A DNA stretch of 64,000 nucleotides from a virus (Duplodnaviria; Caudoviricetes): IMG/VR virus record IMGVR_UViG_3300021431_000092, positions 37,738-101,737 of that record, one strand, 5' to 3'. A model generated the notes under the pieces. That model had not been told where the DNA came from. It saw only the letters and a program-made list of their open reading frames with translations, and did not search any database. Below are positions 18,355 to 53,525 of this stretch, one piece after another. Both the position numbers and the translations under genes were made by a program. How positions within the stretch are numbered: position 1 is the first letter of the stretch; the number at the start of each line of letters is the position of its first letter.

Positions 18355-18897
18355 CTATGTTGTAGGAAACAGTTTGAAAAACTCGTCAAGTTCATTGCTG
18401 TCAATCTTTTTTGTCGGATTATCTCTACAATGCCTGTAAACCTCTTTTGTAAACCACCCCACTTCTACTGTCATCCAGTCCGGACTGAGTATTTCCTTGC
18501 ATTTCTTTTTTGCATACCCAACAACATCATCGTATATATCATCTTCTACGAAGATATTGCCAACTCTTCCGACATGCCAATTCTTGGTAATAACACTATA
18601 TGTGCTATAAAATCTGACTTTTATACACGTTTTATAACTACATATTGTGTCATCATAGTCATTGAGACACAATATATTGTATATAGGCCGATGCATCCAG
18701 TATATATGTTGAAACGCATTATCATTTGTTAGTTCTGTTCGAAACTCATCAAAATACCAATCACATCTTCTCTGATTTGGTAATAACACGGCACACTCCG
18801 GTTTGTATAAAACATATTTATACTTACCATCACGGTGCATACGATCATTTAACTCGTAAACAACAGTGGATAGTTCTGATAACCTGTGAATATTCAT
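18355..18897 (-). CDS. hypothetical protein with C-terminal ELDxFF tag
   Basis: Ends IDSNELDEFFKLFPTT. Confidence 0.6.
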   Translation of the reverse strand: MNIHRLSELSTVVYELNDRMHRDGKYKYVLYKPECAVLLPNQRRCDWYFDEFRTELTNDNAFQHIYWMHRPIYNILCLNDYDDTICSYKTCIKVRFYSTYSVITKNWHVGRVGNIFVEDDIYDDVVGYAKKKCKEILSPDWMTVEVGWFTKEVYRHCRDNPTKKIDSNELDEFFKLFPTT

Positions 18898-18907
18898 GAT
18901 AAAAACC

Positions 18908-19402
18908 TCATACAAATGAATCAAAAAACTCATCCAGAGCAAGCGTATCTATCTTCTTTTCCTTTTCTGTTTTCTTTCTCCGCTTCCTATAAATATTTTG
19001 AACAAACCAATCTAATGATACGTATTTCTCCTCAAGCTGATAGGATTCGGCAAACCTAGAAAATATATCATCGTACATGTCGTCAGGAACAAATACACAA
19101 CTAGCAAGTTTAACAATATCTTCAGGCATTGATTTGGCACTGTAAAACCAAACTTTTACAGCCGGCGGCCCGTTATTAAAACCAAGTTGATATGCCCTAA
19201 CAGAGTATGGATAATTAGATACTGCTACGTTCCCATAAACACTCCTGTAGATATGACTGCGAATCATTTCATATCTTGCGTCAATCGCGGCACTATACGC
19301 AGCCTTCTTGCTATTCAAAAGTGCAAAATAGCTATTATCAATTCCCTGTTCAAAATCGCGACTTGTCTTTGCTTCGATGCATGAAATCCTGTGCAACTCC
19401 AT
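18908..19402 (-). CDS. hypothetical protein with C-terminal LDEFF tag (apparent paralog of 18355)
   Basis: Shares KV.FYS / FV.DD.YDD / WF...Y; ends IDTLALDEFFDSFV. Confidence 0.6.
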   Translation of the reverse strand: MELHRISCIEAKTSRDFEQGIDNSYFALLNSKKAAYSAAIDARYEMIRSHIYRSVYGNVAVSNYPYSVRAYQLGFNNGPPAVKVWFYSAKSMPEDIVKLASCVFVPDDMYDDIFSRFAESYQLEEKYVSLDWFVQNIYRKRRKKTEKEKKIDTLALDEFFDSFV

Positions 19403-19797
19403 TACCCATCACCCCCAAACTCGTTAAAGAAATTATCAAGCTCTCCGTTGAGATCCTCGTTAGAGCCAAAGCATAGGGGTTCCTTTGGCATTTTTTCAAG
19501 CTCTCTTATAGTCTCTAGCGCTCTAAGATATTCGTCGTCAATTACATTACCACGAGAATCGTACACCTGCTGTCCCATAAGCGATATACGATCTATACTA
19601 AAACTACTGTCAATTGGTATGCCGAGAAGCCTACGTTCCCATTCGCTGTATTCATACGTAGGAATTTCGTATGAAACAACAGGGGTGTTTATTATCGCCT
19701 CCTGCTCTCTCAGTTCATCCCACATAACCCAATCATCGGTGCGTACTATCTTGTATTCTAATGGCTTATTGTCATGCAATCTCAACATATAAATCAC
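19402..19797 (-). CDS. hypothetical protein with C-terminal ELDxFF tag
   Basis: Ends NGELDNFFNEFGGDG. Confidence 0.55.
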   Translation of the reverse strand: MIYMLRLHDNKPLEYKIVRTDDWVMWDELREQEAIINTPVVSYEIPTYEYSEWERRLLGIPIDSSFSIDRISLMGQQVYDSRGNVIDDEYLRALETIRELEKMPKEPLCFGSNEDLNGELDNFFNEFGGDG

Positions 19798-19798
19798 C

Positions 19799-20748
19799 TC
19801 ACATAAGCTTTTGGTAAGATGTCATCCTGAAGTATTCGCCATCGCGTTCATAATGCAGACATACAATCAGATCATCTTTGCTTATAGATCCACAAGATTC
19901 AACAGTCCTGTTAAAAACCGTGAACCGAGACTCCTTCCCGCTACCTATAGATCTCGTAACAACTGAATAACCAAACTGTTTACCATCCTTTTTACGTTTC
20001 AAAGGATATATATTTGTCACATAAAGCTTCGGCCTATCCTCTTGTCTGCCTGAAACAAACCCCATATACCCCATTATTTCTGTGAAGTTTCGCGCCTTCA
20101 AAACCACGCTCAAATCTTCCATGCCAGCCGCTTTAATTGCGTCTTCAGCCTCTTTCAGAATTGAATCGATATCCAGAAGCGTATAGCTCTTCGCTTCTGC
20201 TCCTGCCTTTGTGACTCCGACTGCATACTTCTTAACGATCGGCTCAAGCGGCGTTCCGTCAACCTTTTCCCTCTGAACTTTCTTTGCCTCTCCCTGTTTG
20301 AAGACCTCGTAGAACAGCTCTGTAATTCTAAATAGCTCTCTTTGGTTGCCAAATTCAGAAAAGAAATCTATCTTAATCAGAATATCAAGCTGTCTTGAAT
20401 CGATCGATGTCTCCGTTAATGCGTTCAACACGTCTACGAATCTGTCATATTTATGCTCTTTTGATAACTCATACAACTCATCGGCCACTTTACTGCCGAT
20501 GTACTTTACAGACGCAAGACCTTTTGAGATCATGTTTTCTTCTTTGTTAAAGAAGTATCCACTTCTCGACGTTCCCCACTTAGGCATCGTCACTCTGATC
20601 TTTCGCTTATGAGCATATGCCGTTCCGTTAATAATGTCATCATCGTTTGCCGCGTTATTTAGGAATGATGTTATAAACTCAAATGGATAGTAGTATCTGA
20701 AATACGCACAAAGATATCCGAGCAGACAATATGCGATACTATGATTGT
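19799..20748 (-). CDS. dnaE: DNA polymerase III alpha, exon 2
   Basis: Frame continues upstream of the listed ORF as (Y)NHSIAYCLLGYLCAYFRYYYPFEF; HhH GLASVKYIG; C-terminal OB-like region. Confidence 0.9.
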
Positions 20749-21726
20749 CGTCAATTCCGCCATTTCTGACAGGACAGACTATATCTTCTATGGAATATCT
20801 ATTACCAACATTCCACAGCCGCGCGCTTCGGGCAATGCCCTACTCTACTTGCTTCTTCTCATAGATATTTCTTCTATGATATGCTTTCGATAGTCGTTAC
20901 ACTTTTATCAATCAATTGCACTTGAATGGAATTCATATCCTTTGTATATCCGGTGTATGCGTCCGTGAATCGCTGCGCTTACATTACTAATATTCAGGTT
21001 GTTATCTCTTGCAAACTTTGATATATTTGTGATACTCTCTCTTGAACCGTCTGGTTTTATCACATATACATAACCTAATTTTGTATGAGCTTTAACCTTT
21101 CCAACGTCTCCGCGCCTTGCATTCTCTGACACCGTAACCCATTCACAGTTGCTTGGAGTATAATCTCCATTAGAATCGAGTCTATCTATTGAAAGACCGT
21201 CTTTATATCCGTTCGAAATAGCCCACCTTTTGAACGCATCATATCCACCAAGTAGCCATTCGTCGCACATTACAACGCCTTTACCACCATAGCACTCATA
21301 TCTCGGATTGTTTGGGTTATAACACCTTTGCTTTATACCATGATAAATATGATATAGTTTTTCATTCCTAACTCCAGACTCCCTACATTTATTACAGAAC
21401 TCAGTTTTTCTGCGCTTCAATGCATTCCTGTCGACCCACACTTCATTGCCGCAATCACACACACATAGCCAACTCGTCTTCCTGTTCGGCAACTCTCCTG
21501 TTTGCTTGTATTTATCAGTGACAGTTAAACTCCCAAACTTCTTACCAACAATATCAAGCTTCACATGCTTCACGATCATCACCCCCTTATTATTTTTTAA
21601 TAATATGCTATTGATTGATACTTAGCACGGTATTACCATATCCACTTCGGACTTAGGCTCTCTTACCACCTTAACCTCTCGGTTTAGTTGACCGTTTTCA
21701 CGCGGTTTTGATTGGGCAAATCAATC
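20749..21726 (-). mobile_element. group I intron (978 nt) in dnaE
   Basis: P1 exon UUGGGU pairs with GCCCAA (U.G at 5' splice site); R GUAACGACUA, S AAGAUAUAGUC; terminal G; splicing gives FG-Y-NHS in frame. Confidence 0.92.
20908..21582 (-). CDS. intron-encoded HNH homing endonuclease
   Basis: WLCVCDCG, YGGKG, SIDRLDSNGDYTPSNCEW...N; probable C-terminal DNA-binding domain. Confidence 0.88.
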   Translation of the reverse strand: MMIVKHVKLDIVGKKFGSLTVTDKYKQTGELPNRKTSWLCVCDCGNEVWVDRNALKRRKTEFCNKCRESGVRNEKLYHIYHGIKQRCYNPNNPRYECYGGKGVVMCDEWLLGGYDAFKRWAISNGYKDGLSIDRLDSNGDYTPSNCEWVTVSENARRGDVGKVKAHTKLGYVYVIKPDGSRESITNISKFARDNNLNISNVSAAIHGRIHRIYKGYEFHSSAID

Positions 21727-23914
21727 ACCCAAACTGATAACTTGCGCTATCTTCTATGACCTGTAAGAACTCCTTAGCTTCTTGCTCCGCCTGCTCTCTC
21801 GGCTTGTCTGATTTGCTACAATACCCTTCTAAGATTGATGGCATCGCCGCATCCAATCTGTCTCTTTGCTTACGCCCAATCGCTCTTCTTATGTTGTCAG
21901 CGGCGCTTCCTGATAGACCGCATATCTGTTGCAGGAATGCAATCGTGTCTTCTTGATAAACCAGATATCCGAGGTTGTTTTCAAGTAACTTATCGATTAT
22001 AGGTGACGGATTTTTGTGAATCTTGCGAGACAATAAATCGTCTCTATATGAGGCTCCAGTCGGTCTGATACATGCTGTAACAAGACTCATGTCAAATATG
22101 TTTCTAGGTCGCATTTTCTTCAAGCAATCGAAAGCAAAGGGACTTTCAAACTGGAAAAGCATCGCATTACTTGTCATCATATCATCCCATACCGCTTCGT
22201 CATTCCAGTCTATCTCATTTGTTTTCGGGTATTTTATTCCTATCAGATCACACGCATCTCTTATTCTTGTGACGGTTGATAAGATCAGGAAGTCGTACTT
22301 TGCAAGACCAGTATAGTCATGTATGTTTTCCATATCCAACATCAAGCACGGCTCCCCGTCTTTGTTGAAAACACCATAGTTATCTCTCAGCGTTATAGGG
22401 CTGATAACCATACCGGCCGGATGAACCGACTGCGAAATGATGACGTTGAGAAGCCCGTCGTAGTAGTAGAATAAGTCAGGGTATTTCTTCTTTGTTCCTT
22501 CAGGATCGGAGTCAAACTCCGCTTTTATTTCTGCAATATTCTTTAGGCTGTACGGATTGTCGCTGCTGTTTCCGCCCATCATATCTATCCATCTTGAAGA
22601 GAGGCATCTTCCGACTTCATCTATGACACCCTTCTCCTTGATAGTTCCGAACGAAGCTACGCGAGCTGTTTTCTCAATACCAAACCTATCTATAATGTGC
22701 TTGAAAATTGCTGGACGATCTGTCTCAACGCAATCGATATCGATATCTCCTATCTCCTCTCGATCCTCATTACAAAACCGAGAAAAAACAGTATGCCATG
22801 TTTCTGGATTAAGGTCAATAATATCTGTTACATATGCGACTCGCGAACCACCGACAGAACCTCTTGCTGTTCCAATGGCCATTCCTTGATCCTTACACCA
22901 TGAAATCAATTCGCTCATGGAAAGCATGAACCCATCCATCTTGAGCTTCTGAAAAACGCGCATTTCCTCATCAATCGAAGCTCTGAATGCATTTTTCTGC
23001 GACTCCGAGATAACGCCGGAATCGAGTTTGTCTTGAAACTTTCTCTCAACAGTTTCAACAAACTTCTTTGAATCCTCTTCTCTTGTACCGTACAATATTG
23101 GATACTTGATTGAGGTGTCTAAAATGATTTCATCTGTCATCTCAACGAGTCTATTCGTATTCTCAATTGCTTCAAGATACACAGCCTCTGGCAGAGCAGC
23201 TTGGCGAGAGAACATCTCAACTAGCTCAGGATACGTTTTGTATGTCAGGTCAAAAGAATCCTCGTCGCCGTAACTCTTTCTCTTTGCCTCAAGCAAAACC
23301 TGCCTACACTCTGCCATGTATTTCGAAGAGCTGTGTGTGTCAGTACCCGCTATCAGAGGGGTTCCAAGTTGTTTCGAGAGATCAAATAGTCGTTTATTAA
23401 ACAATACCTGATCCTCATGTGAATGCCCCTGAATTTCAAGAAAATCATACTTTTGAGCAAGCTCCATATATCTTGGATGTGTAGTCGGTAGTCTGTTTAA
23501 TGGAGAAGCGAGACATGCACTCGTTGAGATTATATTATCAGACATATTCAGGAACTCATCAAAACTGATTCGATTTACATAATAGAAATGATCTTCATCG
23601 CATGATCTACTAACGAGCTCGTTCAGCTCTCTGAGACCATCCATATTTCTGGCCATCAATACAACATGGTAGTTATCTCTTACTTTATTATCAAGAGATT
23701 CTGTCAGGTATAATTCTACGCTATGTATGTATTTAATACCGGCCTTTTTACATGCTCCCCATTTTTCAGTCCAGTTAAGTGGCTTGCCGTGCTCTGAAAT
23801 AGATAATGCTTTTGCACCATCTCTTACGGCCAGCTCAATATAGTCCTGATATTTTGTTGCGCTATCTAACAAGCTATAATATGAATGGCAATGATACATC
23901 GTGTAAGACTTCAT
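21727..23914 (-). CDS. dnaE: DNA polymerase III alpha, exon 1
   Basis: PHP HCHSYYSLLD, RGSVGGS, DIDID, HPAG, KYDFL, FQFES, YQE. Confidence 0.95.
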
Positions 23915-24355
23915 TTAACCACCCCAATCGATATTGTCGAACACATCGTCAATTGTATCATCTCTTCTGATCCAATTTACCTCAATGTGTCCACATTTTC
24001 TACACCTCGATACTTCAACATCTACGTTTTTATGTACTTCAACCACATCATATATACACGGATCAAGTTCGCTACGTCCGTCAGGCTTGATTGAAATGCC
24101 ATTGTGATATTCACACTTACTCTTCTTCATATTTACCAGACGTTTCATCGACAACAACCATGCGAATATTAAAATTCGACACGACTTTTGTGTCCTTCAA
24201 ACGCCTATTCACCTCTCTTTCGACTTCTCTATCGAACCTTCTGCTGTCTTTAGACCAAACCTTAGCAGAAATCCAAGCAAAAAAGCCAGAACAAGCTGCT
24301 GCAAAAGCCAAAATTTCAGCCGCCCACTTCAAAAATCCCACAAACAACATCTCCT

Positions 24356-25351
24356 TTACAGCCTGTAACGGCATTCATTATATAATTTTCTGAAAACAGA
24401 CTCTCCTTTGTCGACAGGAGCATCTTTTGCAGATAAAAGTCGCTTAAAATCGTATAAGTACGACACATTTACGTACTGTTTGAGCGTCTGGATGTTCTTG
24501 TCTGCCTTAACATCGATCTCTTCGTCGAGTGCAAACACAACAGGCACGCCGAGCCGCGCTAAAATCTTCATTTGAGACGGGTTTAAGTGCGAAGTTAGTA
24601 GCGCTCCTGTATTTTTGAAGCCAAATCCCCGTGCTAGAAGCACCGATTTCATTCCTTCGAACAAAATCACCTCATGTTTGTCACGGATTGCGTCTTTATT
24701 TTCATAAAGACCGTACAAAACAGCCATTTGGCCACCCCAACCATGCCTGTAACCGTACTTTGAGATGCCCTTTGCCTTAAAATCAGGATCAAGAGTCCTC
24801 ATTCCGACATTTACAAGCTGTCCGGCGTCATTTTTGATTGGGTAGACGATGCAGTTTGAAAAACTATCGTATTTTACGCCGAAAAACTTCATCGCCTCGT
24901 CAGTAATACCCTCATCTCTCCAAATTTGAAGCTTCTCAGGTCTGTTCTCGTACCGATCCATGTAATTATCTGGCAGAGCGTGTATAAAACCCGTCTTTTG
25001 TTGTCGTTTTTTCGCCTTAAAAGCGCTACAAACCTTAGTTGCGCTCATTTTTTCAGCAAATTTGACTTCTCCATCGTCATCTTCTGAGATACCAGCGTAC
25101 TTTTTCAGTATTTTCACTGCCTTCCACGCCGGTACATTGTGGTACTTCTGAATAAAGAACAAAACCGATCCGCCTTGACCGCTTGAGAAGTCGTAGAACT
25201 TATTTGTCTCTCTTCTTACAGAAAACGACGGTGTGTTTTCGTCTTTGAACGGGGAGAGCCCCCAATATTCCCCGTTCTTTTCTTCAAGGTCGACATATTG
25301 ACCGATGTACTCGACAATATCAACCGACTCGATAAGTTTCGTCAAGTCCAT
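24356..25351 (-). CDS. dnaG: DnaG-type primase (Zn-less ZBD + TOPRIM)
   Basis: GLSPFKDENTPSF; LFEGMKS; ALDEE. Confidence 0.85.
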   Translation of the reverse strand: MDLTKLIESVDIVEYIGQYVDLEEKNGEYWGLSPFKDENTPSFSVRRETNKFYDFSSGQGGSVLFFIQKYHNVPAWKAVKILKKYAGISEDDDGEVKFAEKMSATKVCSAFKAKKRQQKTGFIHALPDNYMDRYENRPEKLQIWRDEGITDEAMKFFGVKYDSFSNCIVYPIKNDAGQLVNVGMRTLDPDFKAKGISKYGYRHGWGGQMAVLYGLYENKDAIRDKHEVILFEGMKSVLLARGFGFKNTGALLTSHLNPSQMKILARLGVPVVFALDEEIDVKADKNIQTLKQYVNVSYLYDFKRLLSAKDAPVDKGESVFRKLYNECRYRL

Positions 25352-25368
25352 CGAATCATCACCTCGCT

Positions 25369-25924: not shown

Positions 25925-25939
25925 CTCAACACCCCGTAA

Positions 25940-28061: not shown

Positions 28062-28071
28062 GAGGCATCAC

Positions 28072-28449
28072 TCAGAACGGAAGGTCATCGTCAGAAATCT
28101 GCTCTTCTGTATCTCCGCCGTCCTCTACGTGAACTTCTTCTTCCTTTTTCTCAGCGGGCTTCTGAAGTTCGAAACCAAAACATGTGTAGTTTACAAACTC
28201 CCTTTTCTTTTCCTTGTCGTATTTCGAAGACACATCTACATGACCAAGCTTGATGCGATCTTTTTCATGAAGCTCAAGAGCTTTCGCAGCATTATCTGCG
28301 CCAACGAACGCCACATATCCAGAGAAATCCTGAACATACGTACCAGTATCTCTGTCTTTTCTCGACGTTGTGATCCTAACTACAGTCATCGTGCGAGACT
28401 TACCGTCGACCTGCCAAACAGTTGCATATGCATCATTCCGAAACCCCAT
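28072..28449 (-). CDS. ssb: single-stranded DNA-binding protein
   Basis: OB-like body with acidic tail ending DDDLPF. Confidence 0.8.
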   Translation of the reverse strand: MGFRNDAYATVWQVDGKSRTMTVVRITTSRKDRDTGTYVQDFSGYVAFVGADNAAKALELHEKDRIKLGHVDVSSKYDKEKKREFVNYTCFGFELQKPAEKKEEEVHVEDGGDTEEQISDDDLPF

Positions 28450-31033: not shown

Positions 31034-31044
31034 AATAAGTGTGC

Positions 31045-31455
31045 CTATTCTTTATTCAATTTCATTGCGATATTCCAAGCCGAAACCAGCTCGTCTTGGT
31101 TTATAAAAGATATTCCGCCTGTCGCTATCAAACTCGCCTTCGCTATACTCGACATATATTGTTGATTTAATGTTGTAATATATCTAAATATTTTTGCCTT
31201 TGATATAATCTGTGGGTTTTCACAGAGCGCAATACTATCTTTTTCAATACCGGAGTCTGAACATGATATGAATACGTGTGTTGGCAAATGCAGCTTTTTT
31301 ATAGAGGATGTCAAAGGTATTGCTATAATATTATCGCTATGTTTATTGCCTCTATTATTCTGAAATACAACGCCCGGACGAACTCCCGCCTGTTCGTGCC
31401 CAACTCCACTAAACAACATTACATAAACGTCTCCAATACGTGGGATTAAACTCAT
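31045..31455 (-). CDS. PemK/MazF-family endoribonuclease
   Basis: GDVY, GHEQAGVRPGVVFQNN.GN, IPLTS, LPTHV, S.ALCE. Confidence 0.85.
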   Translation of the reverse strand: MSLIPRIGDVYVMLFSGVGHEQAGVRPGVVFQNNRGNKHSDNIIAIPLTSSIKKLHLPTHVFISCSDSGIEKDSIALCENPQIISKAKIFRYITTLNQQYMSSIAKASLIATGGISFINQDELVSAWNIAMKLNKE

Positions 31456-33874: not shown

Positions 33875-34642
33875 TTACTCCTCAAATACAATTCTACCAT
33901 CTACATAATCTCTTCTTGCTGTGAATACCGGGATATCGTTGTCAATCACCCACTTCGAACGAACACCTCCGTCATTGATTCTCACAACGCACGTACCTCG
34001 CTTCTTCGGAGTTTCGAGATCATTCCAATTCACACCCTTCTCTTCAAACATCTTGTCCTGAAGCGCTTTGCAACTTTCCCCCTGCAACTCTTTATGTGAA
34101 TAAAGAGATTGTGCAAGGCCAAGAATAGAGTTGCGTGTTGCATCTTGCTGTCTCCAGATCATGTAATTACAAACCTCTTCAACTGGAAGATTAAAACATC
34201 TCGCATCGAAGTACGGTGTCCCGCTCTGATATGCAGATCTATAGATCTCTGGAACAACATCTCCGTCTGTAAGATCGTCAACCATTGTATCAAATGCTCT
34301 GATAAAGAACGAAGATGCCATCGATGCACTAACAGAACAAATTTTCTGAACCTGATCGTCAAACCATGCGGCGGAGTTGAGGCGTTTGTAATCGCAGAGA
34401 ACCAGAGAGATTTCATCAGACTGCGTATACCCCATCACGCATCCTTGAATGTGCGAACAAAGATCAAATGTTGTCCACTTCATCGCCTCCATAAAAACAT
34501 TATCGAACGGCTTCTTAAACTTTCTGGTGAAGCTGTGGAAGTGACATCCGTCAATACGAATAACCACTGGCGTTCGCCGCATCAAATAATTCTTTGGTAC
34601 GGCTTCATAAGTTTTCATTCTGTCTCCAAGCGAATCCATCAT
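33875..34642 (-). CDS. tRNA(His) guanylyltransferase Thg1-like protein
   Basis: RMKTYE, RIDGCHFH.FT, YTQSDEISL, FDAR, WRQ.D..RN. Confidence 0.92.
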   Translation of the reverse strand: MMDSLGDRMKTYEAVPKNYLMRRTPVVIRIDGCHFHSFTRKFKKPFDNVFMEAMKWTTFDLCSHIQGCVMGYTQSDEISLVLCDYKRLNSAAWFDDQVQKICSVSASMASSFFIRAFDTMVDDLTDGDVVPEIYRSAYQSGTPYFDARCFNLPVEEVCNYMIWRQQDATRNSILGLAQSLYSHKELQGESCKALQDKMFEEKGVNWNDLETPKKRGTCVVRINDGGVRSKWVIDNDIPVFTARRDYVDGRIVFEE

Positions 34643-35146
34643 TCTTCCTCCTCATAATACATTCTTAATCCCGTCGGTGTAGTTGCTTTCCCGACTTTCT
34701 TCAACTTTCCGTCATCAACAAGATATAAATAATAAAAGTCACGAGCTGGCTTACTCGTGACTAAATAAACATAACCGCATTTTGTTTGTATCCTTTCCCA
34801 AAGGATTTCACCCTTTGGCATCTTAATATCCTTATTCATAATCAATACTCCTCTGGATACAAAATAGTTGTGCAATACCGGTCACTTTCTGTTATGATCC
34901 AAATCTTGACATTACCTTGTTTGTATGCAGCCAAAATACGATCGCCGCTCTCTACCGCTTCATCGTTTAGATTGGCATCATCTTTGTCTAGCTCGCCCCA
35001 ATCCCCGAAAACATATCGTTTTAGAGATCGCGCCACGAAATCTGCAAAAGCTTGGGACTGTTCCATAGACTCAGAGATTCCAGCGGTTATATATATCTTT
35101 CCTGTTTCAAACTTCTCCATAAATCCTCCTATGTAAATTGATTACC

Positions 35147-36844: not shown

Positions 36845-37480
36845 TCACTGAAAATCTCTTGCCTTGATCTTAACGATTACTCTTCGACCAAAACGATCGA
36901 GGACTTCACATTCAGGCCGAGCAACGACGCCTTCCATTGGCGCCTTATCACTTACTGTCGAGGTGGCCGTGCTCTTCACGAACTCAACCGCCTCTTCAAT
37001 CGTGCCATAGCCAACAACCGGAACTACATCAACGCCGAACGCCGTCGCGATATCCTCTACGGACTCTCTTGTGAGCCATGTATCCTCGTACATCACGTCA
37101 AATAGGATGAAAGAAACATCGTCTCTGTAAAGAGCACCAACCTTTTGGATCTTCTTGCCATAACCCTCTCCATAAAAGGTTACATCTGCATCGCCAAACT
37201 TCTGTTCGAACAGCTCTTCTGTTTCCGGCGTCATAAATGTATTTGTAAGGTAGTTTACAAGATCGGCGGGGATTTGAGCCTTATCTGTCCGGCCTCCGAT
37301 TTCTACATTATGACCGTCCCAGTGGATTCTAATATTCGTACCGTCGATCTTTTCCGTCCAAATCCACTTTACATCTTTAAGCATCTCGACGGTTTTGTTT
37401 CTGAAATCTCCTTCGATTAGCTTTTTTGAGCCATCAACATCTCTGTTGTACACTGTTTCAATCTTGTGATACTCTTTCAT
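36845..37480 (-). CDS. RNA ligase (Rnl2-like nucleotidyltransferase)
   Basis: TEKIDGTN, YGEGYG, FILFDV, EGVV, IVKIK. Confidence 0.85.
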   Translation of the reverse strand: MKEYHKIETVYNRDVDGSKKLIEGDFRNKTVEMLKDVKWIWTEKIDGTNIRIHWDGHNVEIGGRTDKAQIPADLVNYLTNTFMTPETEELFEQKFGDADVTFYGEGYGKKIQKVGALYRDDVSFILFDVMYEDTWLTRESVEDIATAFGVDVVPVVGYGTIEEAVEFVKSTATSTVSDKAPMEGVVARPECEVLDRFGRRVIVKIKARDFQ

Positions 37481-37976: not shown

Positions 37977-38327
37977 TCATAATGAACTACTTTCAAAGTC
38001 TTCAAAGAATGAATTGAGTTCGTCTTCGTTGACGGTGTTTACATACGATATAACCCACTCTTCCTTACAGTACCACTTGTTTCTAATCTTTTCGCCGTCT
38101 TCATAGTAACGACGATCGAAAGTCACAACATATGTTGGGGTGGGACGATAAGAACCGGAGTTATCCACAAACGGCGATGTTGTAATGTCTGTAATAACAC
38201 CTGAAACACCGATATAATAATCCATGTCACCTGTGGTGTTCCAACCCCACTTGTTATCATCAGTAGGCTCAATAAGAGTCACTCTGTCCCCTATATCAAA
38301 CTGCATACAAACCTTAACCTCCCCCAT
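37977..38327 (-). CDS. SH3/KOW-like small protein with ELxxFF tag
   Basis: FDIGDRV...GW...M..YIG...WYC.E.W; ends DELNSFFEDFESSSL. Confidence 0.6.
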   Translation of the reverse strand: MGEVKVCMQFDIGDRVTLIEPTDDNKWGWNTTGDMDYYIGVSGVITDITTSPFVDNSGSYRPTPTYVVTFDRRYYEDGEKIRNKWYCKEEWVISYVNTVNEDELNSFFEDFESSSL

Positions 38328-38783: not shown

Positions 38784-39095
38784 TTATCCGTCATAAATCA
38801 TCACCTCTTCATACTCAGAAAACATCTTATCAAGCTCATCAGAATCTGGGTAATACGGAGCTATCTTGCTTTTCAGGGTATCTATTCCATTTGGATGTTG
38901 CGACTCAGATATCGGATGAACAGCGCCTTTAGGCCACAAAATCCTCACAGTATACTCACTACTGTTATCATTCTTTGCAGATACAAATCCTATCGTACCA
39001 ACGGCAGGATGCCATCGCTCTGTTTTTCTGCCGTCCCCGTTTGTAAATATTACTTGCTGTCCATAACTATACACATCATACGACACACAATACAC
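38784..39095 (-). CDS. SH3-like small protein with ELDxMF tag
   Basis: PAVGTIGFV...ILWP; DSDELDKMFSEY near C-terminus. Confidence 0.55.
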   Translation of the reverse strand: MYCVSYDVYSYGQQVIFTNGDGRKTERWHPAVGTIGFVSAKNDNSSEYTVRILWPKGAVHPISESQHPNGIDTLKSKIAPYYPDSDELDKMFSEYEEVMIYDG

Positions 39096-42296: not shown

Positions 42297-42587
42297 TTAT
42301 TCATAAAATTCAGAAAACATATCGTCCAATTCCTTGCTTTCTGTAACACCTACACTGTCAACACGTTCAAGCCATTCAATATCAAAGAGCCATCCTAAGC
42401 TTGCCCATGTATTTGTGTCAGCTAATAAACAACTCCCATTTACTATGGTACTGACAAACGCTGTTGTTCCGATTAATTCGTCCATTTTTCTATTCCATCC
42501 AAGTAATTCAGAACCTATTTCCTTCCCGTCCAAAATACGAACGAGGTCGCCTGCATGTATCATAACGATGTTACCCCCAGAACGCAT
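42297..42587 (-). CDS. SH3/KOW-like small protein with ELDxMF tag
   Basis: AGDLV..GW...MD..IG..W.F..EWL; ends ELDDMFSEFYE. Confidence 0.6.
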   Translation of the reverse strand: MRSGGNIVMIHAGDLVRILDGKEIGSELLGWNRKMDELIGTTAFVSTIVNGSCLLADTNTWASLGWLFDIEWLERVDSVGVTESKELDDMFSEFYE

Positions 42588-43496: not shown

Positions 43497-43511
43497 AATA
43501 TATTCCTCCTC

Positions 43512-46155: not shown

Positions 46156-46185
46156 CTACTCGACGCTACTTGTGGTAACGCCGGA

Positions 46186-46261
46186 TGGGCTCTGCCGGAC
46201 TCGAACCGGCGACCTACTGTTTATGAGACAGCAGCTCTAAAACCAACTGAGCTAAGAGCCC
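46186..46261 (-). tRNA. tRNA with CAU anticodon (Ile2 or elongator Met)
   Basis: Full cloverleaf GGGCUCU/AGAGCCC, loop CUCAUAA, T arm GCCGG-UUCGAGU-CCGGC; CCA not encoded. Confidence 0.9.
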
Positions 46262-46294
46262 GCATAAATAAAGGAGAGTAGCAAAGCCACTCTC

Positions 46295-46951: not shown

Positions 46952-46978
46952 ATAACACCTCCAATTCGTGATAAATTT

Positions 46979-47007
46979 ATTATACCATCAATGGTATATT
47001 TTGTCAA
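46979..47007 (-). promoter_or_regulatory. consensus sigmaA promoter containing a palindromic operator
   Basis: TTGACA-17 nt-TATAAT; TATACCAT-CA-ATGGTATA at 46981-46998. Confidence 0.8.
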
Positions 47008-47014
47008 TAGTATA

Positions 47015-48166
47015 CTACATATTTCTCAAATCATCTTTAATACACCTTCTTATATCGATGCCATGTTTGGTAGATATATGATTTACGATTCTGTCTATTG
47101 TTTCCCCTTCTATTGCCTTGTAATATGCACGCAAGCCGTCAAGATGCTGTACGTCCTCCAGAGACCAGTTAATCCCTGCCTTTTTATTCTTGGCATACGC
47201 CGTAAGCATGGACTCGAACTGCCTTTTCTTGCTCCTACCAATTGTCATCTGATTATCCTTGTTCAGCATAATACCGAAGTTCCAGTTTGCGCCACTCGAA
47301 GATCCATATCTAGTTTTCTTCGTATTAAGTTGAAATGGGGCTCCGAACTGATTAAGGATAGACACGATTATCTCTTCGACGTCTTTGAATCTGAATGGAT
47401 TTCGAGACGAAATCAGGAAGTCGTCCGCATATCGAGTATAAACCATACCGAGCTCTCTAAGTTTCTTTGAAATCTCAAAATCAATCGGTATCATCATAAT
47501 GTTTGTGAGCATCGGAGACATCGGAGTACCCTGCGGTAACACACCATCCAAACAACAGAGCTCAAGTGCGTCTCTAAGTGCCGACTCTCCCGTTGTTGTT
47601 CTTAGCAGTATGGCGAACGGATAAATCTGTCTGAACATAGTGATAATAAAATCAATTGTTGTACTGCCGAAGAAGTTGTGCAGATCAAACTTACCGAACC
47701 ACTTCGACTTGTTTGTCTGATGCCGTTTTACGCATTCAATTGTATTGCGGTTATGAATATAAGCAAATGCGCTTGTATGGTACAGATAGTCTGCACCACA
47801 TTCAGATTCGAATATCGTTTTGAGCTCCCTCAAAGCATTCATAAGCTCATCATTTGGTGCATCAATTCGCCTCAGGCCACCTGAGCTTTTCGGAACGTGA
47901 AATGTCCGATATAAACTATGCCTGTCTGCCTCAAGCAAGTTCTTATGATTGCTATTAAACTGCGCAAGTCTCACTGCGATTTGGTAGACGCGCTGTGATA
48001 CATTTTTTCTTATTTCTTTCGGGACTCTGCTTACACATCGAGTAACTGTATTGCTCTTATTATTTGTAATAAGACCGCCATATTCTGCATCATCATCGCC
48101 AAACCAGAGGTCGTCGATGCTCATTTGTCTGTACTTTTGCGATGCAGGCGTGACTACATATAACAT
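47015..48166 (-). CDS. retron-like reverse transcriptase
   Basis: VPKSSGGLRRIDAP, SAFAY, KFDLHNFFGS, LPQGTPMSP, YTRYADD, LNTKKT; ATG at 48166 with AGAAAGGAG RBS. Confidence 0.92.
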   Translation of the reverse strand: MLYVVTPASQKYRQMSIDDLWFGDDDAEYGGLITNNKSNTVTRCVSRVPKEIRKNVSQRVYQIAVRLAQFNSNHKNLLEADRHSLYRTFHVPKSSGGLRRIDAPNDELMNALRELKTIFESECGADYLYHTSAFAYIHNRNTIECVKRHQTNKSKWFGKFDLHNFFGSTTIDFIITMFRQIYPFAILLRTTTGESALRDALELCCLDGVLPQGTPMSPMLTNIMMIPIDFEISKKLRELGMVYTRYADDFLISSRNPFRFKDVEEIIVSILNQFGAPFQLNTKKTRYGSSSGANWNFGIMLNKDNQMTIGRSKKRQFESMLTAYAKNKKAGINWSLEDVQHLDGLRAYYKAIEGETIDRIVNHISTKHGIDIRRCIKDDLRNM

Positions 48167-48181
48167 ACTTTCTCCTTTCTG

Positions 48182-48494
48182 CCGCAATCTGCGTGAGTGC
48201 TTACGATCAGACCTACGACGCCTGAATCTCCTTCAGATATTCTTCTATTCGCGTTGTTCATCTGAAATGATGCGAGTTCCTGATGTATTTGTGGATTTTC
48301 TTGTACTTTGGGCGTTTGTTTGCATCCTATCTGATGGAATATTTTTGTTGAGGCTGTATTCTACTCTTCTGGGGAGCAGCAACTCCAGCTTCGGATCCGC
48401 CGTGGAGTCCCTGAGGCGCCTCTTTCATCTGATCGAGTTGAAGCTCTGGCCACATAGGCGCAGAGCCGACTATAAAAGCCGAATTTCATTGCGG
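48182..48494 (-). ncRNA. retron-like msr/msd ncRNA, RT-proximal copy A
   Basis: CCGCAAT/ATTGCGG a1/a2-like repeat, G at 48487 opposite G at 48189, hairpins CGGCU/AGUCG and GCUCUG..CAGAGC, long-range CGAUCAGA/UCUGAUCG. Confidence 0.8.
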
Positions 48495-48809
48495 TTATTA
48501 AATTTCAATTAATACAAGCCCATCGCTTGATGGTAAATCCCTTTCACATATGTCGAAATACTTGACTGTTTCATTGAAATTGCTCATGATTTCTGTCACA
48601 ATCCCTTTGTAATCTGTACTGTCATAATCTGCATACTCCATAAAGGAGTTTACGAGATCTATGAGTTCATCTCTGTTGATCTGCTTGTCGCTAACAGCCG
48701 ATACGCAAATAGTAACATCCTCGTCATAGAAGTGGAATACAATGGTAGTGGCACGAGGAACTCCGTTCGGGGCAACACCGAAACATCGCATCACAATCAA
48801 TCACCTTCT

Positions 48810-49328
48810 TTACAATTCGTCAAAAAACGCATTAAGTTCTTCGCTATCCTTATAACGCAGTTGACTAACATATTCTACACGTTTTGGATTGCAATAACGT
48901 TCACCGCCTATGCCACATATAGGGTTAGTTGCATCAATAGATTCCAACGGCCAACGAACAACCAGATCTCCGTCGGGGCATACTCGCAACACCTCTCCGA
49001 CAGTACCAACTATTGGAAATATATACGGACTACGCTCGTGTGCATCTTCGTCTATGAATTTTACAAAGTCTCCCTCTCTTAATAACAGTTCAAGCCACGC
49101 AGACTTGAATTGATGATCTTGTATATCGCGCCCCTTATAATTTTCTGGGTTATCATTGCCATCAAATTTCAAACTTATCCATCCATCGTCCGATACTGAT
49201 TCCACGACAAACGTAGATCCACAGAACACCTTAGTCGAATTCGCAAACATCGTTCCGGCATCAACAACGGCTCTGTCGTTCGCATCTTTTACACGAACTC
49301 TCGATCCTATAACTGGTAGACGCTCCAT
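48810..49328 (-). CDS. tandem SH3-like protein with ELxxFF tag
   Basis: Two G(S/D)xV beta modules; ends DSEELNAFFDEL. Confidence 0.6.
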   Translation of the reverse strand: MERLPVIGSRVRVKDANDRAVVDAGTMFANSTKVFCGSTFVVESVSDDGWISLKFDGNDNPENYKGRDIQDHQFKSAWLELLLREGDFVKFIDEDAHERSPYIFPIVGTVGEVLRVCPDGDLVVRWPLESIDATNPICGIGGERYCNPKRVEYVSQLRYKDSEELNAFFDEL

Positions 49329-49332
49329 AAAA

Positions 49333-49650
49333 TCATCCTTTCATCTCTGCGAACAAAGCGTCGAGCTCAGCGCTCTCTTCAGTAATAACCGGTCTTGCAT
49401 AACAGAGGTCGAGCCTTTCAAACCGAATATTTTCATGATGCCATCCAGAGACGTGCATGTCTGATACAATCGCATCATTCCATTTGTCTATTCCGTCTTT
49501 AATTGTGTTGAAATCTGGTACGATAGCTACTACAAGACCGTCTGAAATTTCAGTGATTTTTACAATGACACCGTGATAGTTGCTTCTTGTGATTGGGTTT
49601 TTGTTGAATATAGCGATATCTCCAACCTGTATATCTCCAGCATTAATCAA
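49333..49650 (-). CDS. SH3-like small protein with ELD tag
   Basis: Paralog of 49647; ends EESAELDALFAEMKG. Confidence 0.6.
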   Translation of the reverse strand: MINAGDIQVGDIAIFNKNPITRSNYHGVIVKITEISDGLVVAIVPDFNTIKDGIDKWNDAIVSDMHVSGWHHENIRFERLDLCYARPVITEESAELDALFAEMKG

Positions 49651-49979
49651 GACAAAACACCTCCATCCATTTCAGAAAACATTTTGTCAAGCTCCGGGCT
49701 TTCGTCATATATTGTGCTTGTTTCATAATACGGATCAAGCCTGTCTACCGCAATGATCTCTTTATGTACTCTTCTCTGGTTATCGAAATCAAGTTCCGAA
49801 TTCCACTGTGCAATAGCACCGTACTCAACCTCATCTCTGTTTGGCGTGATCGCGCTTACATGGTTTTCATCATATACTTCAACGACCTTTACAATTGCCC
49901 CTATAAAAACAGGTGCTGTACTGGAATGTCTATTGAATACGGCGAGGTCGCCTAGATGCAGATCTTCAAGATTAAGCAT
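49647..49979 (-). CDS. SH3-like small protein with ELD tag
   Basis: GDLAVFN...G.IVK..E; ends DESPELDKMFSEMDGGVLS. Confidence 0.6.
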   Translation of the reverse strand: MLNLEDLHLGDLAVFNRHSSTAPVFIGAIVKVVEVYDENHVSAITPNRDEVEYGAIAQWNSELDFDNQRRVHKEIIAVDRLDPYYETSTIYDESPELDKMFSEMDGGVLS

Positions 49980-50471
49980 AATCTACCTCCTATCTTTTAT
50001 AAAAAGTGCCCTCAAAGGCATAAGCTACATTCGCCAATACACAGCAACAGTTCTAATCTTTTCTGAACCTCATGAAACTCGTCCTCTGAGACATTATATT
50101 TTTGCATCGTATCGCTCATTTTGCTATCATTTGATATGAACTCCATGCATCCACATCCGCATTCAGTCACGTTACACCTGCCGGTATCATCTGTTTCTCC
50201 GAAATCATTTATATCTGCGTCAACACCGTTAACGCGGAATACCTTTGTGCGGCACGGAAGCAACTTGTATGTTTCGATTTCGATGCTAAGCATAAAACCA
50301 CCCTTTCATAAATCACTTTCTTCTATGTCGGTGACTAAAAAATCGTCAGCCCACTCCACATCTTTATAACCGTATCCATTTGCAATCTCAAGCGCTCTCT
50401 GTTCCGAGTCTGCCTCAATATCAACACTGCCAACTAAAGCAAACGTGACGGTATATTTCATAGTATCACCT

Positions 50472-50786
50472 CTACATTTCTGTGAAATAACTGTCGAGTT
50501 CATTCGTATCTACGCTAAACTCCTCTTCGTGATTCGGAAGCGTAGCAAGTTCGCATTCACTATGCCACCATCTGTCGTCTCCCGTCGTTGATCCGTCAGG
50601 CCACTGTACAAGAACAGAGTTATCGTATTCGGCCGGAATATTTACAACACGTCCGACTGTTCCGATCTCAGGCTCCCATTCATATCCTCGTCTTTTGCCG
50701 TTGTAACCAACGAACTCGACCGTGTCGCCGAATTTTAACATAACATTATTCACCCCCAAAGTCTCCGAAGAAACTATCAAGCTCAT
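50472..50786 (-). CDS. SH3-like small protein with ELD tag
   Basis: PEIGTVGRV...LVQWP; ends VDTNELDSYFTEM. Confidence 0.6.
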   Translation of the reverse strand: MSLIVSSETLGVNNVMLKFGDTVEFVGYNGKRRGYEWEPEIGTVGRVVNIPAEYDNSVLVQWPDGSTTGDDRWWHSECELATLPNHEEEFSVDTNELDSYFTEM

Positions 50787-51036
50787 GAGTGTCTACTTCT
50801 AAAACGCCATAAAGTCTAAGCCAATCCTCGTCGAACCACCAGCGGTCTTCATCCTCTTCGAGCTTATATATAAATGTTCCATCATCCTCCTCATTTATTA
50901 TGTCGATTGTGAAGATTTCACCGACCATATCGTCCATATCATCCCACCATCCAATATTGTTTTCGTCATCGTTTACATTACCTATGACAACTACTTTGTC
51001 TCCTGCGTGAAATAACTGGGCATTCATCGTATCCAC
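50746..51036 (-). CDS. SH3/KOW-like small protein with ELD tag
   Basis: FHAGDKV..GW..MD..VG..WWFDEDWL; ends VDTHELDSFFGDFGGE. Confidence 0.6.
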   Translation of the reverse strand: MDTMNAQLFHAGDKVVVIGNVNDDENNIGWWDDMDDMVGEIFTIDIINEEDDGTFIYKLEEDEDRWWFDEDWLRLYGVLEVDTHELDSFFGDFGGE

Positions 51037-51039
51037 CCC

Positions 51040-51279
51040 TTATATAAAGCTTGAAAAGAACTCATCTAGCGGCGTTTGCCGCTGAATTTCTCCGTAACGG
51101 CACCAACCCATGCCGTCCCAGTTCCCGTCTTGATTCCACTGAATCAAAATTCCTCTGTTGTTGAAGCCCAAAACGGTTCCAACTGAGCCGTTCTGCGGAC
51201 AGAACTTGTATTTTGTACGCTTTTGTGATGTAAAAATCACTTTATCTCCGATTTTATATGCCACTCCGCAACACCTCAT
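51040..51279 (-). CDS. SH3-like small protein with LDEFF tag
   Basis: YKIGDKV..P..GSVGTV..ILIQW; ends PLDEFFSSFI. Confidence 0.55.
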   Translation of the reverse strand: MRCCGVAYKIGDKVIFTSQKRTKYKFCPQNGSVGTVLGFNNRGILIQWNQDGNWDGMGWCRYGEIQRQTPLDEFFSSFI

Positions 51280-51506
51280 CTCAGTGTAGTTCTGCCGGGA
51301 TGACAGTCGTCACACTCTTTGTAGTCTCTTTTTGCGAGCATATTCCAGTTCGAGATCGCATCATAAATATTACTCTTTGTATAAGAACTGTATCCACACA
51401 GCGGACATTTGACATCGAATAATCTTCCAGACTTTCCGGACTGTCTCACATCTGGTTGAGCGCCGCATCTTGGGCATTCTTCTACATTGATAATATCAGA
51501 CGCCAT
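51276..51506 (-). CDS. Lar-like zinc-finger protein
   Basis: CPRCG...CPLCG...AISNWN. Confidence 0.55.
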   Translation of the reverse strand: MASDIINVEECPRCGAQPDVRQSGKSGRLFDVKCPLCGYSSYTKSNIYDAISNWNMLAKRDYKECDDCHPGRTTLR

Positions 51507-51736
51507 AAGATCCTCCTTTTTGCTTGCGTTTGATTATTTCTTCCTTGCTTCTTCCGTAAAGCGGATTGGTTTTTCTTTTTCCAGCAACAAAAGCCGCCGT
51601 CCTATTCCTATCTCGTTCACGTCTCTCTTCAAGAGCTTCTACGATATGCCGAAGCAAATTGATGTCATCTGCGTCGACAGGGTCGAAGATCAGGTCTCTT
51701 GTTGTCAACTCCTTGAGAAACGCAAGCTCTTCATTT

Positions 51737-52045
51737 TTAATGTTCGGCACTATCATCACCTCCGAAGTTCGAGAAAAAATTGTCGAGTTCCTCAGTATCA
51801 ACCGGAGTCTCATCGTATGGGACAAGCCACGCCTCATTACAGTACCAGTGGTTCGTTAACTGAGTTCCGTCATCGTTAAACCTTTGTGCTGGAAATTCGA
51901 CCATATATGCAAGATTGTCTTCGCTATATATTTCTTTTACAACTCCCCAATCTCCGATAAAATAGTACATTGATTGACCCCATCCGCTACTATTATTTGG
52001 AGATGGCGCACACAGAACAACCCTGTCTCCGACATTAAATAACAA
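51737..52045 (-). CDS. SH3/KOW-like small protein with ELD tag (paralog of 37977)
   Basis: TTG start with AAAGGAG RBS; FNVGDRV...WYCNEAWL; VDTEELDNFFSNF. Confidence 0.6.
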   Translation of the reverse strand: MLFNVGDRVVLCAPSPNNSSGWGQSMYYFIGDWGVVKEIYSEDNLAYMVEFPAQRFNDDGTQLTNHWYCNEAWLVPYDETPVDTEELDNFFSNFGGDDSAEH

Positions 52046-52079
52046 TTTTAACACTCCTTTCGTAATATAAGATTCAGAA

Positions 52080-52154
52080 ATCAACCGGCCGGACTTGAAC
52101 CGACAACCTTCCACCGGATATGGCGGACGCTCTCCCTCCTTGAGCTACGGTTGA
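52080..52154 (-). tRNA. tRNA-like gene with aberrant 8-nt anticodon loop
   Basis: UCAACCG/CGGUUGA acceptor, GCUC/GAGC D stem, UUCAAGU T loop; loop CAUAUCCG. Confidence 0.6.
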
Positions 52155-53221
52155 CATGCGGCATAAATAACGGCGATAGACTCGGAACGTAAATACTATG
52201 CACATAGTCTATAAATATGTTTCTAAAAATTTTAATTTACATAAAGTCATACGCTATGCCACATCCGTCAAGCGGCACAACTCTACCGCCGCATGACGTA
52301 TAATCAGAGCTTGCGAGCCACCACATTTAAGGTGCCGGTTTCCATATCATGTATGGCTTTCCGGAATGTCGACTGCTCACGATTATCGCTGTGTCCGCGC
52401 TTATACCGCAATGCTATGCGGCATTTTGAAGAAGCATAAAGAAAACCGGCAGGGCGTTTTGCTCTGCCGGTTCTCTCTTTGCATTTTACATCTCAATGAT
52501 TCGATTTTCAAATTCATTTGCCGAGATACCTTTGTCATAATCTGAAAAGTTAGGAATATCCGTGATAATGATATGAGTTGCGTTTGCGGCTTCTGCCGGT
52601 TCGTATGCGTTCGATGCAGTTTGCTTGTGGTATCTCCACGGCGGAGTATTTACGCCGTTGATTACAGAAATGTGATATCCGTAATCGTTTTCGCCCGTAT
52701 CGCCTTTAATAAGCTGCTCTGCTGTTGCTGTAAGTGCGATCTCTCTTTGCGTTTTCCAGTTTGCCATTTTCCATACCTCCTTTTATGTTCCGGCAGAGGA
52801 TTGCCCCTGCCGGTTCTTTTTTTTATTCGTTTATCATGCTTGATACGGCTGATGCGAACCATTTAGAAGATGGAACATCTTTATGCTGTTTGATGTAATC
52901 ATCAAGTTTCAGCGTCTTGACTGCCTTGCCGTCATTGAACAGCGTATAAACATAACCGTCAAGCGCTGTCCATCTTTCGACTGCTGTCAGATGCTTGTCC
53001 ACATCGTGCTCGGATTCGATGTTTGTGATTGTCTGCTCTGCGGTCTGGTTTGTGCTGTGACCGTTTCGCTTAGCGATTGTTGTATCAAGCGTAATGTGTT
53101 CGATGATTTCAGAACTATTGACATCCACAAGGAACATATCTGTGCAATAGTCATTATAGCTGTACGGGCATTTTTTCAACCAAATTTTCATTTCCCTTAC
53201 CTCCTGCCTATCGGTATCTTT

Positions 53222-53250
53222 ATTGTATCATACCGGAGAGGGTTTGTCAA
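53222..53250 (-). promoter_or_regulatory. sigmaA promoter of a two-gene moron (52823-53191, 52486-52767)
   Basis: TTGACA-17 nt-TACAAT; each gene is followed by a CCGGCAG..CTGCCGG hairpin. Confidence 0.75.
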
Positions 53251-53285
53251 GCCATCTTTCCAGTTTTTACCATAGAAGTATTGTT

Positions 53286-53525
53286 TTATTCGAACTCACC
53301 AAACATATTGTCGAGTTCCGAGCCATCAACATTTGGTTCATCGAGTCCAGACTCTTTCAGATCAAAGTACCGTTCATTAACAGTCCATCCTCCGGGATTT
53401 ACACATATCATCCCGTCCGAAAGTACGTCAATAACCTCCCATTCTGTACCAGTTCTGGTGACAGAGTAATGCTCGCTTGCATATCTGTTGCCAATAATGA
53501 TATCACCTACATGAAACATAATCAC
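53286..53525 (-). CDS. SH3/KOW-like small protein with ELD tag
   Basis: FHVGDII...; ends VDGSELDNMFGEFE. Confidence 0.6.
   Translation of the reverse strand: MIMFHVGDIIIGNRYASEHYSVTRTGTEWEVIDVLSDGMICVNPGGWTVNERYFDLKESGLDEPNVDGSELDNMFGEFE

Follow-up and report, generated by a model that had tools for sequence, protein, structure and literature searches.

A shared C-terminal tail on 14 small genes

The window analyzed here is a stretch of 64 kb of DNA, the right end of a 101,737-bp IMG/VR phage record (CheckV completeness 86%) that represents an uncultured, ~100-kb phage of gut or rumen. Fourteen genes on the minus strand of this window encode small proteins that end in, or 0–8 residues after, a nine-residue tail of the ELDxFFxEF type (hereafter, the tag), and a possible degenerate 15th copy lies directly upstream of the gene for the N-terminal part of a DnaE-type polymerase (DnaE-N; the C-terminal part is referred to as DnaE-C). 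The genes are given below in window coordinates, with strand, length in amino acids (aa), type of body, C-terminal sequence up to the stop codon, and the coordinates of the tag.

18355..18897, minus strand: tagged gene 1, ~180 aa, non-SH3 body, paralog of gene 2; tail ...KIDSNELDEFFKLFPTT; tag 18367-18393
18908..19402, minus strand: tagged gene 2, 164 aa, non-SH3 body; tail ...KIDTLALDEFFDSFV; tag 18914-18940
19402..19797, minus strand: tagged gene 3, 131 aa, unique body, directly downstream of DnaE-C; tail ...NGELDNFFNEFGGDG; tag 19417-19443
37977..38327, minus strand: tagged SH3_15-like gene, 116 aa; tail ...NEDELNSFFEDFESSSL; tag 37995-38021
38784..39095, minus strand: tagged SH3-like gene, 103 aa; tail ...DSDELDKMFSEYEEVMIYDG; tag 38811-38837
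42297..42587, minus strand: tagged SH3_15-like gene, 96 aa, just downstream of the phage sigma factor; tail ...ESKELDDMFSEFYE; tag 42306-42332
48810..49328, minus strand: tagged gene with two SH3-like domains, 172 aa; tail ...DSEELNAFFDEL; tag 48813-48839
49333..49650, minus strand: tagged SH3-like gene, 105 aa; tail ...ESAELDALFAEMKG; tag 49342-49368
49647..49979, minus strand: tagged SH3-like gene, 110 aa; tail ...ESPELDKMFSEMDGGVLS; tag 49668-49694
50472..50786, minus strand: tagged SH3_15-like gene, 104 aa; tail ...VDTNELDSYFTEM; tag 50475-50501
50746..51036, minus strand: tagged SH3_15-like gene, 96 aa; tail ...VDTHELDSFFGDFGGE; tag 50758-50784
51040..51279, minus strand: tagged SH3-like gene, 79 aa, the sole basic member; tail ...RQTPLDEFFSSFI; tag 51046-51072
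51737..52114, minus strand: tagged SH3_15-like gene, longest open reading frame (ORF) 125 aa (public called product 102 aa); tail ...VDTEELDNFFSNFGGDDSAEH; tag 51764-51790
53286..53525, minus strand: tagged SH3-like gene, 79 aa, first gene downstream of the ubiquitin-like (Ubl)/E1 cassette; tail ...VDGSELDNMFGEFE; tag 53292-53318
23915..24157, minus strand: possible degenerate 15th copy, 80-aa zinc (Zn)-ribbon-like ORF, directly upstream of DnaE-N; degenerate motif TIDDVFDNIDWGG; end ...RRDDTIDDVFDNIDWGG

All but three of the tagged proteins are strongly acidic. The first-pass annotation of this DNA had listed 14 coordinates with their tail peptides; each coordinate is the stop codon of a minus-strand ORF, and the peptides are correct. 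The residue preference that it reported upstream of the tag was also confirmed, in the form [VI]D[TSG]x or [DE]Sx.

Enrichment and level of selection

The tag is a real, portable C-terminal motif of the protein. In a six-frame translation of the whole 101,737-bp genome, the regular expression [EAPDQ]L[DN].[FMLY]F..[FYML] has exactly 14 matches, all on the minus strand, in ORFs of 81–197 aa and with 0–8 residues before the stop codon. Likewise, a hidden Markov model (HMM) of the motif returned 14 matches at E<=1.3e-3, the next match having E=0.97. All 14 copies have F at position 6 and fit L-[DN]-x-[FMLY]-F; eight have exact LxxFF. Enrichment over a shuffled background was measured with a looser expression, L[DN].[FMLY]F..[FYML]. 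Among rough gene-caller proteins, which included only eight of the 14 tagged genes, eight matches were observed against a mean of 0.49 (maximum 5) after residue shuffling, whereas the six-frame translation gave 15 matches against a mean of 2.6 (maximum 7) in codon-shuffled genomes.

The first-pass annotation had also asked whether a ribosome-binding site (RBS) or another overlapping DNA constraint could account for the motif. Synonymous codons are near-evenly mixed in the motif (GAA 7, GAG 5; CTT 6, CTC 5, with CTG, TTG and CTA; GAC 7, GAT 5; TTT and TTC mixed) and the sequence beyond the stop codons differs among the copies; therefore, the constraint is on the peptide and not on an RBS or DNA element.

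Bodies carrying the tag

Eleven of the 14 bodies align as one divergent family with the pattern GDxV...G..G.V..I...W...W, followed by a linker of variable length and sequence and by the tail. When 1.84 billion representatives were searched with a profile of these bodies, 500 proteins matched at E<=1e-3, and the long matches are SH3_15 (Mind bomb REP-type) repeat proteins, the top ones reaching 318 bits on SH3_15. We place the 11 bodies as relatives of SH3_15 at the profile level, with a predicted SH3-like fold. The Pfam gathering threshold for SH3_15 (PF18346) was missed, with 18.3 bits for the best window protein against a cut-off of 24 and no match for the others; apart from this weak match, Pfam and PHROGs searches of the tagged bodies, in the window and in related phages, returned nothing. 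An AlphaFold model of the 51737..52114 product (overall predicted local distance difference test [pLDDT] 85) contains a small beta-barrel with pLDDT >90, which aligns weakly (E 6e-3 to 2e-2) to Mind bomb REP, KOW-type ribosomal proteins, and PsaE. The tail is modelled as a helix (residues 82-90, pLDDT 56-66) that is separate from the barrel and follows a low-confidence linker.

The three non-SH3 tagged proteins are encoded consecutively, directly downstream of DnaE-C, and match the SH3 profile with an hhalign probability <1%. Two of them, from the genes at 18355 and 18908, have paralogous bodies (E 2e-6). The earlier statement that the bodies belong to several different families thus holds insofar as three unrelated body types carry the tag, although it overstated their diversity: 11 of 14 are one family, two are paralogs, and one stands alone.

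Conservation and homologues outside this genome

Among the matches of the profile search, 32 of 62 small proteins carry the tag. In orthologues (48–93% identity), whose conservation had been named in the first pass as a check on the motif, the tag is kept almost letter for letter, whereas the residues after it are altered or absent, as in the pairs ...EDFESSSL vs ...EDF and ...SEYEEVMIYDG vs ...SEY (each up to the stop codon). Post-tag residues vary in this way, and therefore the free C-terminus is not part of the signal. In an alignment of 24 family members, the nine tail columns carry ~2.7 bits each, which is the level of the barrel core, compared to ~1.3 for the linker.

The homologues that combine an SH3-like body with the tag are singletons from Logan and ENA assemblies, and the family has no description in PHROGs or Pfam. 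A word-based homologue search returned the query itself only, the ESM Atlas gave matches to unnamed phage clusters only, and a literature search on the motif strings found nothing relevant. Neither megablast against cultured phages nor tblastn produced a match, and no shared tails were seen around DnaE in C. difficile phage LIBA6276 or in MT835556. At the DNA level, a degenerate motif pattern gave essentially chance-level matches in IMG/VR, and a stricter pattern had 0 matches in JGI metagenomes and one chance match in GTDB genomes. A family search found 0 loci in IMG/VR contigs and one short locus in JGI contigs.

Tail versions in related phages and position beside DnaE

Ten related phage genomes (G001–G010; 96–121 kb, guanine-cytosine content 39–54%, conserved synteny) were compared whole. 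Six of them have a sister tag, [ED]LDxFLxxF (FL-type), on one to six proteins and 2–10 residues before the end. Position 6 is never F in the ~17 tags of these FL-type genomes. G009 (IMG/VR 3300021399_000125) encodes two proteins between primase and DnaE-N (57236-58780, plus strand) that end ...PPxELLxWLDSLP..., and the body of one of these is homologous to a G004 protein ending QLDEFLDSF. The bodies are homologous and the tails differ; therefore, the tail version changed on an orthologous gene. In G008 (IMG/VR 3300024303_000028), a complete genome with terminal repeats and without tags of the ELDxF[FL] or WLDSLP type, four small proteins that are unrelated to one another by BLAST end in (I/V)PL[DN]LxxI[FY]x at the stop codon (86694-93200, minus strand, locus L056). 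No shared tail was seen in G006 and G010. This position-6 pattern is suggestive of one tail version per lineage, and only suggestive because the paralogs are not independent and because two public proteins with different tail versions, described below, possibly share a contig.

The polymerase gene beside which many of these tags lie is split in the window as follows.

21725-23914, minus strand: DnaE N part (PHP/palm)
20908-21582, minus strand: HNH / I-HmuI-like endonuclease gene, between the DnaE N and C parts
19799-20593, minus strand: DnaE C part (HhH/OB)

The two-part DnaE layout is conserved in all ten relatives. About 12 of 18 tags in seven relatives (the six FL-type genomes and G009) are encoded beside DnaE, at a distance of no more than one or two genes, either directly before DnaE-N on its upstream side or after DnaE-C on its downstream side. 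In the window, the same positions are occupied by the three non-SH3 copies and by the degenerate copy, whose position upstream of DnaE-N holds a tagged gene in relatives. In total, tagged genes flank DnaE in eight genomes of the phage group. The DnaE-flanking tagged bodies of the relatives are mostly unrelated by BLAST, and none of eight tagged bodies compared to the SH3 profile (five from G005, two from G001, one from G002) scored significantly. Tagged bodies of G005 with a GDxV-type pattern were considered as SH3-family homologues, but their hhalign probability was <4%, and homology is not claimed. The DnaE N part is highly divergent in G004, G005, and G007 (34–35% identity), in which the C part is alike (58–61%).

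A tag-like end also occurs outside the window. At genome position 12097-13158 (plus strand, locus L107), a 353-aa Zn-ribbon protein is encoded just before the large terminase (TerL) gene (phrog_3314), on its upstream side, and ends ...DEDLINDFFSEFDSADQ..., which is tag-like (FFSEF) in this phage only. All ten relatives have an acidic DDE-hydrophobic-hydrophobic-x-D-hydrophobic-F tail at the same pre-terminase position. Such a tail could be small-terminase-like and dock on TerL.

A docking helix as the favored interpretation

The first-pass annotation had proposed that the tag is a portable acidic amphipathic helix. This description agrees with our results: the tag occurs on three unrelated body types in the window and on more in the relatives, is kept in orthologues, and is modelled separately from the barrel. 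A hydrophobic face, a separate helix of low confidence, and portability are together the signature of a docking peptide. We therefore favor, with modest confidence, the interpretation that the tagged proteins dock on one common partner through an acidic amphipathic helix, which has an [IL]xxFF core and is tethered by a linker. Both the binding to such a partner and its identity are what we infer.

Under this docking interpretation, the tail helix would present L, F/M, F, and F/M (positions 2, 5, 6, and 9) on one face amid acidic residues. It would hang on a linker of variable length and sequence behind unrelated folded bodies, and its hydrophobic face would enter a groove of the common partner, with early or middle proteins as the clients. 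The logic would be the same as for T4 gp43, gp33, and gp55 on gp45, or for clients of PCNA that carry a PCNA-interacting peptide (PIP) box. The SH3_15-like bodies, which belong to a peptide-binding fold class and for which an adaptor role is thus possible, may each bind a different target and bring it to the shared partner, in which case they would form an "adaptor library".

As for the partner, our leading guess, offered tentatively, points to the DnaE-based replisome, of which the phage polymerase and the host sliding clamp are the two candidate components. This guess is made because tagged genes flank DnaE in eight genomes and because the core of the tag equals the PIP [IL]xxFF. The DnaE flanking is the sole positive pointer to the replisome.

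Several observations weigh against docking on a common partner. Eleven of the 14 copies are paralogs of one SH3_15-like family, and therefore much of the count reflects gene duplication, which inflates it. The low pLDDT of the helix does not prove that the helix is free. None of the hubs proposed in the first pass was confirmed as the common partner. In the phage record (86% complete), neither the beta-clamp families PF00712 and PF02768 nor, at E<=1, the PCNA/gp45 families PF00705 and PF02916 had a match (the host is bacterial). The tail lacks the Q of the PIP box and misfits the bacterial QL[SD]LF motif. Finally, for two tagged public proteins, P0155 (FL-type) and P0029 (MF-type), the longest contig is 39,815 bp in both cases; they may share one contig, and then the rule of one version per genome would not be strict.

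The DnaE C-fragment has no canonical clamp-binding motif. Its conserved FGNQREL[FL], which was considered as a clamp site, is the end of the HhH domain and not a QxxLF motif, and was rejected.

A broader interpretation, which is quite speculative, is that the ~100-kb Firmicutes phages of this group have a co-evolving system of C-terminal addresses, in which lineage-specific tail versions (ELDxFFxEF, ELDxFLxxF, ELLxWLDSLP, and PLDLxxIF) would be read by one fast-evolving receptor. In the phage studied here, the SH3_15-like library would deliver host or phage targets to this receptor (the DnaE replisome or a protease). Such a system would constitute a natural set of bifunctional adaptors. If one partner reads the tail, about one-tenth of the phage genes, all of which are "hypothetical" now, share a single handle, and if the common hub is real, the SH3-like bodies would point to its clients. 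The differing tail versions on equivalent genes of related phages would represent a natural specificity-swap experiment.

Alternative explanations

The alternative that survives best, although we regard it as unlikely, treats the tail as a feature of the family: the C-terminal helix of an expanded SH3_15-like family that packs on its own domain or self-associates and was spread by recombination, with no external partner. The membership of 11 of the 14 bodies in one family fits this explanation, as does the recurrence of the SH3-plus-tail architecture in public metagenomes, where about half of the small matches (32 of 62) have the tag. In addition, the two non-SH3 paralogs have W[FY]xxxxY-type residues before the linker, much as the SH3 members do. 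However, the tag is also found on bodies without detectable similarity, both here and in the relatives, and linkers vary in length and sequence in front of a helix that is modelled apart from the barrel, with low confidence. The tail also equals the barrel core in conservation, and a nine-residue acidic helix is poorly suited to self-association.

Less probable still is a proteolysis signal or a handle for a Clp adaptor, serving the timed removal of early proteins or docking on the phage ClpP-like protein or the host ClpC/ClpX. The gene in question lies 0.6 kb downstream of the three DnaE-adjacent tagged genes, in conserved synteny.

17097-17762, minus strand: ClpP-like protein (Pfam CLP_protease, 87 bits; best PHROG match, head maturation protease, E 3e-31)

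Genomes with an ELDxF[FL] tag all have this gene (7/7, at least 46% identity), whereas it is absent or at 29–36% identity in the four others, and a phage adaptor-like protein for ClpCP of B. subtilis, SPO1 Gp53, is known from a Firmicutes phage (bioRxiv 10.1101/569657). This correlation comes from eleven related genomes, however, and is confounded by shared ancestry and of low power. Among PHROGs, the ClpP-like protein matches a head maturation protease best, and the complete genome G008, which has no ClpP-like gene, still has its four-protein tail. Moreover, Clp C-terminal degrons use a free terminus, whereas 0–8 variable residues follow the tag. When the presence and absence of ORFs was profiled across the ten relatives, only four genes correlated with the tag, namely those for the ClpP-like protein, NT5C, and an MrpR-like recombinase and a 78-aa ORF, none of which is convincing as a hub.

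Some further features of the ClpP-like gene were recorded. Its neighbors are genes of nucleotide metabolism, the head genes being far away; no other protease was found between the portal and capsid genes. The C-terminus of its product, DC[DE][IL][DE]x[IV][IVM] at the stop codon, is conserved in six relatives.

We consider it very improbable that the tail is a handle for the Ubl cassette, in which JAB would trim behind a post-tag Gly-Gly and E1 would activate the new end.

54010-57986: Ubl E1/E2-like/JAB cassette, with nine of the 14 tagged genes directly downstream

Besides this proximity, three tags are directly followed by GG and a fourth by DGG, F/L/M-GG-[ED] recurs in public homologues, and the phage Ubl itself contains ELDKSFAEL. 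Yet GG follows only four of the 14 tags, several proteins end at the tag, and Gly after a helix is a common helix cap. The cassette is also present in G006 and G010, in which no tag was seen, and in G008 and G009, which have other tail versions, and conversely the tagged G007 has no detected cassette (the record is incomplete). The ELDKSFAEL sequence lies 19 residues before the end of the 77-aa Ubl (57753-57986, minus strand), where ubiquitin has LSDYNI, and scores E 6.5 with the tag HMM; it may be a coincidence.

Lastly, the motif is close to downstream gene starts, but its origin as a by-product of a DNA or RNA element (RBS, promoter, or structure) overlapping gene ends is ruled out by synonymous variation, with freely varying third codon positions and five Leu codons, and disagrees with a stop distance of 0 to 24 nucleotides, with differing post-stop sequences, and with protein-level retention in orthologues.

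Genome context and neighboring genes

The gene map of the window shows a minus-strand transcription layout from ~7.4 kb to the window end. The gene content is a replication and nucleotide-metabolism set typical of large Firmicutes phages, which includes the DnaE-type polymerase, DnaG, DnaB, a PD-(D/E)XK nuclease, Erf, NrdD, and PhoH, as well as the ClpP-like protein, the sigma factor, and a reverse transcriptase. An exonuclease and a YonO-type RNA polymerase are also among the proteins conserved in the tag-bearing genomes. Among cultured phages, the polymerase is closest to those of Clostridioides and Bacillus phages (37–41% identity). A candidate gene for the single-stranded DNA-binding protein (SSB) was assigned as follows.

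28072-28449, minus strand: SSB candidate, 125 aa, between Erf and the PD-(D/E)XK nuclease, ends DDDLPF

This gene is called an SSB candidate because it adjoins Erf and has the DDDLPF tail; no Pfam family matched it at the chosen threshold, and most relatives have it too. A PemK/MazF-like toxin-fold gene (31045-31455, minus strand; Pfam 75.7 bits) is kept in nine of the ten relatives. The genes for a Thg1-like tRNA-His guanylyltransferase (33875-34642, minus strand) and an RNA ligase (36845-37480, minus strand) point to a tRNA repair module. Five of the six FL-type relatives share a 78-aa ORF of the window (34639-34875, minus strand), which has the pattern PKGExxW...TSKxxRDxYYLY...KxGKAKTP; it was not detected in the four others.

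Comparison with known docking systems

The closest parallel in logic is that of phage T4, in which gp43, gp33, and gp55 have interchangeable hydrophobic-acidic C-termini with divergent linkers that bind gp45 (PMC2988020). The first-pass annotation had drawn this analogy, which is apt, the shared clamp-binding C-termini being documented in that study. Both systems place a short hydrophobic-acidic C-terminal segment on unrelated proteins behind a variable linker. In contrast to T4, no gp45-like clamp or clamp loader was found here, the putative clients number 14 rather than three and are mostly tiny SH3-like proteins, and the tag is L-D-x-F-F-x-x-F and not of the T4 form. Docking is known in T4 and is proposed here.

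The PIP box has the consensus Qxx[I/L]xxFF, and the bacterial clamp-binding motif is QL[SD]LF (PMC9690074). Common to the tag and the PIP box are the L-x-x-[F/M]-F core, acidic surroundings, and a position that is often C-terminal. It differs in that the Q position (three before Leu) is T/S in many copies and otherwise various, but never Q, and in an extra conserved hydrophobic residue at +3; moreover, the host is bacterial and has a beta clamp. Compared to QL[SD]LF, position 1 of the tag is E, A, or P, and position 4 is polar (E, N, S, K, D, A).

The acidic C-terminal tails of T7 gp2.5 and gp4 dock on T7 DNA polymerase and need the terminal Phe and its carboxylate. Like the tag, they are acidic with an aromatic residue; they belong to replication proteins and are read by a polymerase, and the tagged genes here flank a polymerase gene. 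Unlike the T7 tails, the tag is followed by 0–8 variable residues, and the candidate SSB of this phage has an ordinary DDDLPF end. The tags also differ from the SSB tip (DDDxPF) in lacking a P-F end and in that they need not be terminal.

SPO1 Gp53 offers a parallel, being a small early Firmicutes-phage protein that docks on and redirects a host hub, but no shared tail motif is reported for this single protein. No similarity to the tagged proteins was seen, no search having been aimed at it. As for the bodies, the 11-body profile retrieves repeats of SH3_15, the Mind bomb REP domain (PF18346; PDB 4xi6, 4tse), and the model aligns to REP; peptide binding is a feature of the Mind bomb REP domains. 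The window proteins differ from SH3_15 in that they fall below the Pfam threshold and are mostly single-domain phage proteins with an added C-terminal tail.

The principle of a docking tail is established by the T4 clamp tails, PIP boxes, SSB, and the T7 tails, and what is new here is the motif, the scale, and the putative reader. Three features make this case distinctive: an expanded SH3_15-like family, the placement of tagged genes next to DnaE, and tail versions that differ between lineages.

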